In this document: one piece after another, positions 26,158-63,489 of the stretch
Layout: each line of letters opens with the position of its first letter
Position numbering within the stretch: position 1 is the first letter of the stretch
Assembly (NCBI RefSeq): GCF_001677475.2
Contig: NZ_CP015229.1
Origin: Escherichia coli
GTDB lineage: Bacteria; Pseudomonadota; Gammaproteobacteria; Enterobacterales; Enterobacteriaceae
Strand: one strand, 5' to 3'
DNA length: 64,000 bases
Position numbers and translations under genes: made by a program
The notes under the pieces: model-generated
Database searches by the model: none
What the model saw: only the letters and a program-made list of their open reading frames with translations
What the model was told of the DNA's origin: nothing

Positions 26158-26396
26158 TAAAATCACAAAGCAAGAAATTATAAGTGAACTGATATTTATT
26201 ATCATTTGAAATAAATTTAACTTAAGCAACAATTATTTGTGACGTTCATTGCAGAAAATAAAAATAACATTATCGCTATAAATTAAAATACATACCGAAA
26301 TTCGTATAATTTCAGCAGTTGTTATTTAGAATGATTAACTGGACTGCAACTGAACTAAGAATATCAGGATGAAGCTTACCGCCTCATCCTGAATGG

Positions 26397-35483: not shown

Positions 35484-35852
35484 CTATACCCCAAAGCTTT
35501 CGCCACAGCCACATTCATTCTGGGCTTTAGGGTTGTGAAATTTGAATATCTGATTAAGTCCTTCACGAACGAAATCGACTTCCGTGCCATCAATAAACGG
35601 CATCGCTTGCAGCGGGACAAACAGCTTCGCGCCGTCGTGTTCAAACAGCAGATCGTCTTTGTCCGGCTCGCTAACACTGTCGAGCACATAGCCAAAGCCC
35701 GCGCAGCCTGTTTGCTTCACGCCTAAGCGCACGCCGACCATACCTGGCTGCTTTGCCACCAGCTCGCGGATGTGTATCGCCGCTGCGGGTGTCAGCGTTA
35801 AGCCTTGCCAGGCGAAATCCTGTGGATTAAAGGTTCCTGAATGCATGTCCAT
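35484..35852 (-). CDS. sufA: Fe-S cluster A-type carrier SufA
   Basis: 122 aa with C-terminal Cys motif CGCGESF. Confidence 0.95.
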
Positions 35853-35895
35853 CGATTTACCTCACTTCATCGCTTTCAGCGTATAACAGCATGTT

Positions 35896-35914
35896 AGTGA
35901 TAATGATTATCAGT
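35896..35914. promoter_or_regulatory. Fur box in the suf operon promoter
   Basis: GTGATAATGATTATCAGTT closely matches the Fur consensus GATAATGATAATCATTATC, about 45 bp upstream of the sufA ATG. Confidence 0.65.
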
Positions 35915-36117
35915 TCAACCCAGCAAACGCAGGGGCTTTACCGTAAAACATGCTTTTTTCCTGCTTTTAATAAGCATAGACCCTGATGTGTGGGTTAACA
36001 GGCACGCTAAGAATTAGGTATCTCATTGTTAGATAATGATTATTATCTAAGGAGCATTAAGGCTGTGATGAAAAAGAAAAAGTTGTATTGAAAATGACTA
36101 TTTAAGAGATAGGTAAA

Positions 36118-36190
36118 AAAGTGCAGCGTTCAGAAATAAGAAAACCCTTAAGTCTGTGCGACACAGGCTTAAGGGTTTCTACCCCATCCG
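36118..36190 (-). ncRNA. rydB: Candidate RydB small RNA (position inferred from the terminator hairpin and the known sufA-rydB-ydiH order)
   Basis: On the minus strand, AAACCCTTAAGCCTGTGTCGCACAGACTTAAGGGTTT is followed by TCTTATTTCT (hairpin plus U-rich tail). The sRNA sequence itself was not recalled, so the boundaries are approximate. Confidence 0.35.
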
Positions 36191-36400
36191 GCGCTTATCT
36201 CCGGCACTCTCAGTGGCTTAGCTCTTGAAGGGGCGATAAGAATAATCTCATAAAGCTAACCCGCCGTTTTAACACAAACTGCGATTAGTATTATTTTTGA
36301 ACAATATCAGGCGGGTAGATAAGCAGTATTAAGAAGGCCATCGAACCTGGACGGAGATTAATCCAGGTCGATATGGCGAACTTGCGGCATTAAGTCAGGA

Positions 36401-36589
36401 TCAATGCACGCCCAGACGCCAGGCAAAGTAGATTTCTTCTTTTAATTCAGCAGAAGAGAGAGTAAGCAGGTCAGCAAATTCAAGTTCTAGTTGTTTCAGA
36501 CGTTTGAGATATTGGGCAGGTGAAAGATTGCTCTGGTCACGGCGTAAAAATTCAATGGCCAGCTGGGTGGGATCAAGTTGAGTAGACAT
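36401..36589 (-). CDS. ydiH: YdiH, small uncharacterised protein (62 aa)
   Basis: Start chosen at MSTQLDPTQ; the track ORF extends 27 codons upstream. Confidence 0.8.
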   Translation of the reverse strand: MSTQLDPTQLAIEFLRRDQSNLSPAQYLKRLKQLELEFADLLTLSSAELKEEIYFAWRLGVH

Positions 36590-36688
36590 AGCATCCTCGC
36601 TTTTAGACAAGACCTGCACAGTATACCACCGTTTACTGTGCAGATAATGACCAAAAGCAATATGCGTCACACTTTTCTGGTGACAACG

Positions 36689-37099
36689 TCACAAAATGGC
36701 GGTCGTTAATCGTGACGAACAGCACAAACGCCCTTTCTCATCGAAGATTTCAATCTGCCAGACCTGGTGACGCGAACCGAGATGCAACGGTTTGCATACG
36801 CCGCGCACCCGCCCTTCTCGTGCCGAGCGGACGTGGTTAGCATTGATTTCCAGACCAACTACCTTTTGCTCACCTTCGGTACATAAATAACCGGCAACGG
36901 AACCGATACTTTCGGCCAGTACCACGGATGCCCCTCCATGCAGCAACCCGAAAGGCTGCTTTGTCCGCGAGTCTACTGGCATTGTCGCTTCAAGGGTGTC
37001 ATCACCAATATGTTCAAAGCGAATATCCAGTAACCCCACCATGTTTCCTTCACCCATGGCATTCAGTGCTTCCAGGGTGATTTTTCGTTTCCATATCAT
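36689..37099 (-). CDS. menI: 1,4-dihydroxy-2-naphthoyl-CoA hydrolase (hotdog-fold thioesterase)
   Basis: 136 aa PaaI/YdiI-type thioesterase. Confidence 0.93.
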   Translation of the reverse strand: MIWKRKITLEALNAMGEGNMVGLLDIRFEHIGDDTLEATMPVDSRTKQPFGLLHGGASVVLAESIGSVAGYLCTEGEQKVVGLEINANHVRSAREGRVRGVCKPLHLGSRHQVWQIEIFDEKGRLCCSSRLTTAIL

Positions 37100-49859: not shown

Positions 49860-50771
49860 TTATCCGGCAAGACTTACCGGTTGAGGAAATTCAGATAAGA
49901 TTTCTTGTTCCGCAAAACAGTTTTTAAATTGCCTGCGGTAATCGCTGGGCGAACAGCCGACATGGCGCAAAAACAGTTTGGCAAAGTGATCAACATTTTC
50001 ATAACCCACACGCCAGGAGATCTCTGCCTGTGATAATTCAGTATTAGTGAGTGACCATTTCGCTTCCGTCATACGCCGTTGAATAACATAGTTAATAGGG
50101 GAAATACGATACTCTTTGGTAAATTCATGGCAAATATAACTGACGCTGGCACGAAACTTTTTCGATAACTGCTCTAAAGTGATTTTTTCGCGATAGTTAT
50201 TATTCAGATAGAAAAGAATATCTTTTATCAGAACATCTTTTTTAATATATCCCTGCTCCGAACGATAAGCATTTTTAAAGTTTTCGTAGTAAAGAATTGC
50301 TAACGTATAGGCAAAGGCGTCCCATAACGAAGATGTTTGGCTATTTTTACTTTGCGGCAAAATCACACTTAGCTCATTAAATAAGGTTTTAATGACTTCT
50401 TTTCCCTGCCCTGCGGCAATTACCGGGCAAGAATGCGGTTGCAGTAGCTGATTTTCCTCAGCCCCCTGAAACTGAAAGCCGTACAGCGCACAGGTACACG
50501 TCGTTGCTGGATCGTTAACGTCAGAGGCCACCGCATGCAGCCTGCCACGTTCTATCACCACAATGTCATCGGCGTGCGCGACATATAACGAAGAATCGAT
50601 GGTAAACCTTGCTACCCCTTTCTTGACGTAAATCAACTCGGTTTCATTGTCATGAACGTGATGTCCGGACTCCCATTTTGGATCATCGCTAAATGCAAAA
50701 CGTGAAAGCCGTGGCGTTTTACCGGCGACAAACAGCGTTTCGCTGGCGTTATCAAAACAGCGTTGATACAT
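49860..50771 (-). CDS. ydiP: AraC-family transcriptional regulator YdiP
   Basis: 303 aa with C-terminal AraC helix-turn-helix; divergent from ydiQ. Confidence 0.9.
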   Translation of the reverse strand: MYQRCFDNASETLFVAGKTPRLSRFAFSDDPKWESGHHVHDNETELIYVKKGVARFTIDSSLYVAHADDIVVIERGRLHAVASDVNDPATTCTCALYGFQFQGAEENQLLQPHSCPVIAAGQGKEVIKTLFNELSVILPQSKNSQTSSLWDAFAYTLAILYYENFKNAYRSEQGYIKKDVLIKDILFYLNNNYREKITLEQLSKKFRASVSYICHEFTKEYRISPINYVIQRRMTEAKWSLTNTELSQAEISWRVGYENVDHFAKLFLRHVGCSPSDYRRQFKNCFAEQEILSEFPQPVSLAG

Positions 50772-60950: not shown

Positions 60951-61081
60951 ATGCGTGCCCATTCCTGACGGAATGGGCACTTCTGCGCAACTTGTTGTCT
61001 TCTCAACACATTACTGCTTGCTCTGGCCCGCTATAATATTGATAATAAGAATCATTGTTATATCAATTATTATTAATTTTT

Positions 61082-62775: not shown

Positions 62776-63489
62776 TTATCGCTGAACCAACGTCGTTATC
62801 TGATTTACAGGAACGGCAGGCCACAGGCATCCCTGGAGAGCATGGAAATCGAAGGGGGTAATCTGTGCCATTATTTCTGGCGTATCAATGCCCCCCGCGA
62901 TGATGCAATTGCAACATGGGGAAATTTGCGCCTGGATCGCACGAATAAACGGTTCGAAGGAGCGATGCGTGATTTGTTGCTGAATAAAACTTTTATCCAG
63001 CATGACGCGGGTGAAAAGACCATCAAAAACCGCTTTCATTGTGCTATTGCCTGCGCCCAAATTACCTAACACAAGGGGATACATTTGCGATAAGGACAAA
63101 AGATCGCGATTATCTTTTCCTTCATCGAGATGCGGGTAATTCTCATTAATCAACAGTTCAATAAACGGATATTTTAATAGTTCGCCCGCGTAATTATCCC
63201 TGTCTAATAATAATGTAGCCACTTGTGGCGTTAAATTAAGCCAGGCAAAGAGTTTATGTTGAATAAAAAAGTGTTGGCATGATTTTAGTAATTCCAACTG
63301 CTCTGAAAATAATTGCCAATGTTGCTCCTCGGTAAGTTGCGCTATAACCCGACTCGTCGGGATACGAACCGTACCATCTTCACTGGAGAAATGGGTAATT
63401 AACTCAACGCCGACAAGGTCTTGCTGGTTATCTCTTATCGGCAGGAAATAGCAATCAGAATGATAAAGATTCTCCAAAAAAATCTTCAT
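62776..63489 (-). CDS. ydiV: Anti-FlhD4C2 factor YdiV (degenerate EAL domain)
   Basis: 237 aa ORF matching YdiV. Confidence 0.93.
   Translation of the reverse strand: MKIFLENLYHSDCYFLPIRDNQQDLVGVELITHFSSEDGTVRIPTSRVIAQLTEEQHWQLFSEQLELLKSCQHFFIQHKLFAWLNLTPQVATLLLDRDNYAGELLKYPFIELLINENYPHLDEGKDNRDLLSLSQMYPLVLGNLGAGNSTMKAVFDGLFTRVMLDKSFIQQQITHRSFEPFIRAIQAQISPCCNCIIAGGIDTPEIMAQITPFDFHALQGCLWPAVPVNQITTLVQR

Follow-up and report, generated by a model that had tools for sequence, protein, structure and literature searches.

The intergenic region upstream of sufA in this Escherichia coli genome seems, with a probability that we put at about 0.8, to hold a Fur operator at its promoter (box 1), an upstream palindrome (box 2) that is the arm of an IHF site with an incidental resemblance to a Fur box, and a mini-ORF that is a product of chance. 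The window in which these elements were studied is the whole stretch of 64,000 nucleotides that was analysed, and all positions are counted along it. Every element agrees with what is established for this promoter, and in that sense the arrangement is already known. A preliminary description of the same DNA had called both boxes Fur-like and had suggested for the second an IHF site or an additional Fur or IscR site.

The sufA control region and its proximal Fur operator

The interval, taken on its minus strand, is the upstream control region that includes the promoter of sufABCDSE in E. coli, and the locus is that of sufA–rydB–ydiH–menI–ydiJ in E. coli, as identified by an Rfam match to rydB and by near-identity to MG1655. 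The sufA ORF lies at 35484-35852 on the minus strand. Over 35700-36700 the window is matched by 5421 of 5426 complete E. coli genomes at identities of 95-99%, and from 35840 to 36260 it is 99% identical to MG1655, with two substitutions at 35959 and 36039. The upstream boundary of the suf regulatory region is formed by the gene for the sRNA rydB together with a terminator hairpin (36131-36246, minus strand); the match to Rfam RF00118 covers 36174-36234 (minus strand) at 81.6 bits, and the MG1655 rydB annotation projects onto 36179-36246. The hairpin itself is an inverted repeat at 36142-36178 followed by a T-run, with 17-bp arms and then TTTTCTTATTT on the minus strand (36131-36178 in all), and it is not flagged by a simple terminator scan. 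Only about 6 bp separate its end from the OxyR block described below, and so rydB transcription runs directly into the suf upstream activating region.

A numbering frame for the promoter comes from published mutants, as the strain table in PMC12594620 lists a PsufA Fur-site mutation (-26ATA-24 to TAT) and two PsufA IscR-site mutations, namely a deletion of -56..-51 and -50C>G. Since the sole ATA in the Fur core and a correctly spaced C match these mutant positions, +1 is placed on the minus strand at 35884, 32 nt upstream of the ATG. The PsufA core promoter of that frame occupies 35884-35918 (minus strand), with a -10 TAACAT at 35891-35896 (-7..-12) and a -35 TTGAAC at 35913-35918 (-29..-34). 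Both elements are near-invariant between genera in an information profile calculated over 73 non-Escherichia species, within a cross-species set of 80 Enterobacteriaceae sufA loci.

Box 1 is the known Fur operator of the suf promoter and is already established as such. Its sequence, GTGATAATGATTATCAGTT, has a single exact occurrence on the minus strand at 35897-35915, so that the sequence first reported is indeed present and its position of 35896-35914 was one base off. The 7-1-7 core within it, TGATAATCATTATCA, lies at 35898-35912 (minus strand, -14..-28 from +1), agrees with the Fur consensus TGATAATnATTATCA at 14 of 14 positions, and contains the published -26ATA-24 mutation (PMC12594620). 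A scan with the classical Fur 19-mer allowing up to three mismatches found only box 1, itself with three mismatches, and for that reason a Fur matrix was constructed. The matrix is symmetrised, 19 bp wide and built from 19 sites at the coordinates that Chen et al. 2007 (PMC2189734) give for the strongest Fur site per cluster, with sufA left out; 17 of the sites were taken from K-12 after conversion to NC_000913.3 and two, ydhY and ydiE, from the window. All 17 converted K-12 sites fell exactly on a 7-1-7 match, and in leave-one-out scoring the training set averaged 21.1 bits with a minimum of 12.6. On this scale box 1 scores 21.8 bits, rank 2 among some 64,000 positions and the strength of footprinted sites; the sufA cluster of Chen et al. 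2007 (PMC2189734), one cluster of 3 sites over 31 bp at 21.3 bits, is centred on it. Box 1 is present in 80 of 80 Enterobacteriaceae sufA loci, with 17.6-26.6 bits wherever the position relative to the ATG is kept, and the core sits at about -60 from the ATG in 79 of them.

The remaining locus, that of Intestinirhabdus alba (L057), has its box displaced by a GC-rich insertion of about 95 bp that separates the Fur box from the sufA -10 region; the insertion has terminal inverted repeats (GGCTGTGTCCC...GGGAACACAGCC) and resembles a small mobile or REP-like element splitting the operator from its promoter. Elsewhere in the window the matrix returned the ydhY promoter (22.1 bits at 26197) and ydiE (19.6 and 17.7 bits at 61047/61053), both known clusters in Chen 2007, as well as 15.9 bits at 63468 and 14.9 bits at 50270. 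Published ChIP-exo data place an intragenic ydiU/ydiV Fur peak about 100 bp from 63468.

Occupancy of box 1 in vivo can be read from the Fur ChIP-exo study of Gao et al. 2023 (PMC10164565), carried out on nine strains with 0.1 mM FeCl2 or dipyridyl. In its Dataset 2 the sufA promoter has one Fur peak each in MG1655, W3110, W, Crooks and Sakai, and two peaks 33-36 bp apart in KO11FL, 042 and CFT073. Both boxes were mapped onto the CFT073, 042, Sakai and MG1655 records. In CFT073 and 042 the peaks flank the centre of box 1 at distances of 16-18 bp, and the MG1655 peak stands at +16 from it. The paired peaks are the borders of one Fur complex of about 35 bp at box 1, and together with the matrix score and the cross-species presence of the box they bear out the Fur box named in the preliminary description. 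Fur-dependent sufA expression and a Fur-site mutant (PMC12594620) are both reported in the literature. Fe2+-Fur on box 1 would cover the -10 and the spacer, so blocking RNA polymerase, and would also compete with the adjacent activator apo-IscR at -30..-55; such occlusion and competition come from the literature (PMC12594620, PMC7229158, PMC8300815, PMC8593673), and the geometry seen here is consistent with them.

The upstream palindrome and the IHF site

The second element had been placed about 130 bp upstream of box 1 as a nearly palindromic sequence resembling the Fur consensus. The location is exact: TAGATAATGATTATTATCTA occurs once, at 36030-36049 (-146..-165), and the two boxes are 133 bp apart from centre to centre. 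The palindrome was understated, as box 2 in full (36029-36050) reads TTAGATAAT-GATT-ATTATCTAA, a perfect 9-bp inverted repeat with arms at 36029-36037 and 36042-36050 and a 4-bp spacer. The likeness to Fur exists and is weak. With its centre at 36038, box 2 reaches 10.3 bits on the matrix, rank 9 in the 64 kb, which is below the weakest training site at 12.6 bits, and a second, overlapping match 3 bp away at 36041 reaches 3.2 bits. A first-order Markov model of the local composition yields scores of at least 10.3 bits about 0.1 times per kb by chance, and the chance of one such match within the intergenic region is roughly 3-6%. The Fur resemblance of box 2 is therefore real and weak, a borderline case that stands above background and is weaker than every training site. 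The weakest footprinted Fur promoters on the scale of Chen 2007 (PMC2189734) have strongest sites of 11.5 bits (tonB) and 12.3 bits (fur), and 10.3 bits comes close to these.

The score depends on the allele carried at 36039, one of the two positions at which the window departs from MG1655. The A of the window gives 10.3 bits, the G of K-12 gives 7.8 and a C gives 5.6; the K-12 G stands at +1 on the 9-1-9 alignment and costs just 2.5 bits. Among 5414 complete E. coli genomes, 1977 (about 36%) match the 71-bp haplotype with A exactly and 3253 match that with G, and C occurs in one of the other Escherichia sequences compared (L002). The polymorphic base falls in the spacer of the palindrome, outside its arms.

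This evidence allows the idea of a low-affinity auxiliary Fur operator at box 2 to be weighed. Fur bound at -154 would then compete with IHF when iron is plentiful, and the IHF bend needed for OxyR would be blocked, giving anti-activation in addition to direct repression at box 1. The score, its rank and its low chance rate argue for such an operator, as does the overlapping 3.2-bit match, since 3 bp is a typical spacing in Fur clusters, and two Fur-binding regions at one promoter are known from fhuF1 and fhuF2 (Chen 2007, PMC2189734). Against it, the majority E. coli allele drops the score to 7.8 bits and the third allele to 5.6, and Table 4 of Chen et al. 2007 (PMC2189734), which covers strong clusters only, has a single sufA entry. 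The ChIP-exo tables are also against it. Peaks are found around box 1 only, and at box 2, which is 115-150 bp farther upstream, the published tables hold no Fur peak in eight iron-replete strains, three of which (CFT073, 042 and Sakai) have A at 36039 as the window does. The Sakai peak coordinates refer to an older genome version and are placed only approximately, and the maximum offset of 128 bp cannot bring a peak to box 2. The missing peak is the nearest available answer to the test of Fur binding posed with the preliminary description, and under the assayed conditions it speaks against appreciable binding there. Anaerobic Fur occupies weaker sites (PMC4676285), and weak or condition-specific binding at box 2, with low IHF or under anaerobiosis, is possible and compatible with the missing peak. 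A 2023 IJMS ChIP-seq supplement has sufA as expression rows and a resolution too coarse for sites 133 bp apart.

Conservation across genera bears on the same choice. Scans of the E. coli region with IHF and OxyR consensus sequences gave several equal matches, and so a cross-species alignment was needed. The predicted IHF core element lies at 36019-36031 on the minus strand (-135..-147) and reads TAACAATGAGATA, two mismatches from WATCAANNNNTTR, and several other 13-mers in the E. coli region match the IHF consensus as well as it does. In other genera a perfect IHF core of the form TATCAAnnnnTTR, for example TATCAATGCATTG or TATCAACATATTA, aligns with 36031-36019 (in the sufA sense); the best match to WATCAANNNNTTR has no mismatch in 44 of 81 sequences and at most one in 68 of 81, mostly at -179 to -182 from the ATG. 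Because the Escherichia core carries two mismatches and has equal rivals, the IHF assignment in the window rests on homology and on the literature.

Over the 73 non-Escherichia species the TCAA and TT of the IHF core hold the highest information in the stretch, cATTAT (36033-36038) and the AAA tract (36041-36043) are moderately conserved, and the promoter-distal arm of box 2 (36044-36049) has about zero information. Within Escherichia, too, the distal arm varies (in L003-L005) and the core-proximal arm does not change. A or T stands at 15 of the 18 positions 5' of the IHF core. Judged from the alignment, the conservation profile is that of an IHF-site layout, unlike the symmetric conservation expected for a Fur dimer site, and the non-conservation of the distal half-site weighs against the auxiliary Fur operator. 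Scored with the Fur matrix, the position aligned with box 2 has a median of 1.0 bit across genera, is above zero in 53% of species as against 6% of control windows, and reaches 10 bits in 1%. This enrichment in weak Fur-likeness speaks for an auxiliary operator, and a conserved low-affinity Fur site at the aligned position is possible; we put the enrichment down to shared ATTAT/TATCA composition, as a by-product of the composition of the IHF site. At one locus, that of Enterobacteriaceae bacterium UBA5654 (L050), a Fur match of 15.6 bits, about -183 from the sufA ATG, falls squarely on a perfect IHF core, the sole non-Escherichia locus whose upstream position attains the strength of a real Fur site, and a further point on the side of an auxiliary operator. 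With the weak score, one conserved half, the internal polymorphism and the missing peaks in eight strains set against these points, an additional Fur site at box 2 is unlikely.

Box 2 is most likely, on the pattern of conservation, part of the known IHF site, namely its AT-rich upstream arm, and not a second Fur site. The IHF alternative already raised for it fares well, in that box 2 comprises the AT-rich 5' arm and the first two core bases of an IHF site conserved across Enterobacteriaceae. Activation of suf by OxyR from a far-upstream site requires IHF, according to reviews that cite Lee 2004 and Outten 2004 (PMC8593673, PMC7229158, PMC8300815). IHF on the core at -135..-147 and on the AT-rich box 2 arm would bend the DNA, with occupancy and bending taken from the literature, and the bend would let OxyR at about -196..-241 contact polymerase. 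The Fur-likeness of box 2 arises because the IHF arm and core (A-tract, cATTAT, TATCAA) share an ATTATCA-type half-site, and in Escherichia this resemblance happens to extend into a palindrome. What sits less easily with an IHF arm is that 10.3 bits is well over background at rank 9 in 64 kb, and that a perfect 9-4-9 repeat is unusual, appearing in about 1.9% of simulated intergenic regions of the same size and composition, when a monomeric-style IHF arm needs no palindrome. The figure of about 2% is weakened because it is one test among many possible features.

The same repeat, and a polymorphism that falls in its spacer rather than in its arms, could be read as the operator of another, Escherichia-specific dimeric regulator. 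However outer arm positions vary among Escherichia (L003, L004 and L005), nothing similar is found in other genera, and the OxyR, IscR type 1 and type 2 and NsrR motifs that were tried give no match, and such an operator is very unlikely. A minus-strand promoter using the GATAAT of box 2 as its -10 was also considered and set aside; it scores 9/12, and the two matches of that kind in the region are in line with shuffled sequences (mean 1.1).

Flanking regulator sites and the mini-ORF

The IscR type-2 site (ORE-III), AAAGCCCCTGCGTTTGCTGGGTTGAA, is conserved and lies at 35914-35939 on the minus strand (-30..-55), where the published IscR-site mutations fall (PMC12594620). Upstream, the OxyR site (ORE-I), CTATCTCnnAAATAGnCATTnnCnATACAnCTTT, occupies 36080-36125 on the minus strand (about -196..-241) and is the best-conserved upstream block, found in all genera, with ATAG-N7-CTAT units in other genera. 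IscR type-2 sites follow the pattern AxxxCCxxAxxxxxxxTAxGGxxxT, and AAAGCCCCTGCGTTTGCTGGGTTGAA matches the type-2 consensus. ORE-I (OxyR), ORE-II (IHF) and ORE-III (IscR) were reportedly mapped by Lee et al. in 2004 to -236..-197, about -156..-127 and -56..-35, and we take the block at 36080-36125 to coincide with the first of these, at -236..-197. ORE-I and ORE-III so placed coincide with the two strongest conserved blocks, which supports both these positions and the start site used here.

An extra IscR or OxyR site at box 2 is barely credible. A loose type-2 pattern with one mismatch at 36042-36066 touches the distal arm, and an OxyR-like match at 36007-36043 overlaps box 2 with 7/20 mismatches, no poorer a fit than that of the conserved OxyR block. 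The first of these is unconserved, however, and box 2 lacks every CC/GG position of a type-2 site; its best type-2 window overlapping by at least 10 nt has 5/9 mismatches, which speaks against the additional IscR site once suggested for it, and its best type-1 match has 12/25. The OxyR match, scored on four ATAG-type elements at 10-bp spacing, is likewise unconserved at its 7/20 mismatches, and the true IscR and OxyR blocks lie elsewhere and are strongly conserved.

Other features of these blocks are worth recording. Within the OxyR site a Fur-like ATTGAAAATGACTATTTAA at 36096 scores 9.4 bits, and a few other genera have Fur scores of at most 8.5 bits near the same distance from the ATG. NsrR is a reported repressor of suf, and the best match in the window to the NsrR 11-1-11 consensus is at 36080-36102, with 16/22 positions and no other match of at least 16; this match shares bases with the OxyR block, in the half nearer the promoter, and with the last part of the mini-ORF, and the majority sequence of other genera gives about 17/22 by eye. 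Between the IscR and IHF sites, CAGGGTCTATGCTTAaTAAAAG at 35964-35985 (-80..-101) is near-invariant in the 73 non-Escherichia species, on a par with the Fur and OxyR sites, and we know of no regulator for it. In E. coli an 89% inverted repeat (ATGCTTTTT/AATAAGCAT, 35950-35977) overlaps this block.

The OxyR block is also overlapped by a seven-codon mini-ORF, MKKKKLY, at 36068-36091 on the plus strand, with AAGGAG at 36049-36054. It had been described as well-positioned, with AAGGAG 12 nt upstream of a start at about 36067; the ATG is at 36068, AGGAG ends at 36054, and the resulting spacing of 13 nt exceeds the optimum, taken as 5-10 nt, so that the description does not hold. An ATG, an upstream AAGGAG and an in-frame stop are all there, as a translated small ORF or leader divergent from sufA would need, but the spacing is long and no plus-strand promoter-like site was found for it. 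Further, among the loci compared the ATG is confined to Escherichia, four of the five further Escherichia sequences (L002-L005) lack the Shine-Dalgarno sequence, and in three of these (L002, L004 and L005) the stop is lost and the frame extended. Conservation across the frame tracks the OxyR motif and not codons, and the MG1655 annotation has no CDS from sufA to rydB, though recently validated small proteins are annotated elsewhere in that genome. Translation of the frame is highly improbable, and the mini-ORF looks like a chance reading frame across the OxyR site.

Implications and relation to known systems

The import of these assignments beyond annotation is small, the suf promoter being among the best-mapped multi-regulator promoters of E. 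coli. One lesson is that the AT-rich arm of an IHF site can mimic a weak Fur box, and so half-site conservation and occupancy should be checked before Fur sites are called near IHF cores. There is also a common natural polymorphism within box 2. At 36039 the A allele, which about 36% of E. coli have, O157 Sakai, CFT073 and 042 among them, raises box 2 to a 10-bit Fur match that overlaps the IHF arm. It is conceivable, and distinctly improbable, that Fur bound there would displace IHF and weaken the induction of suf by OxyR; this could occur under high active Fur, for example in anaerobiosis, or where IHF is low. Were it so, there would be a strain-dependent link from iron status to peroxide induction of Fe-S assembly, and strains would differ in the iron gating of peroxide-induced suf.

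The phage lambda H' IHF site is laid out with an A-tract and an AT-rich arm 5' of its core. The suf site has a clear likeness to it, with an AT-rich stretch of about 18 bp 5' of its core that includes a conserved A-tract 10-12 nt upstream, and like canonical IHF sites such as lambda H' it would be placed between a distal activator and the promoter. It differs from canonical sites in that the Escherichia core TAACAATGAGATA has two mismatches and the arm happens to be a palindrome. At ftnA a distal Fur site acts by displacing another protein, with Fur set against H-NS, and the upstream Fur-like sequence of suf also overlaps the site of another protein. The likeness to fhuF is that suf too has a strong proximal Fur box and a weaker upstream Fur-like sequence; the difference is that both fhuF regions were footprinted (PMC2189734), whereas the upstream suf element is without reported Fur occupancy. 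With PsufA of K-12 MG1655 the comparison is direct, as it is the same locus, and the window has T for G at 35959 and A for G at 36039. The K-12 promoter as described (Lee et al. 2004, 2008; Outten et al. 2004) comprises a Fur box, ORE-III for IscR, ORE-II for IHF and ORE-I for OxyR, and with +1 at 35884 all of these elements fit their published positions.
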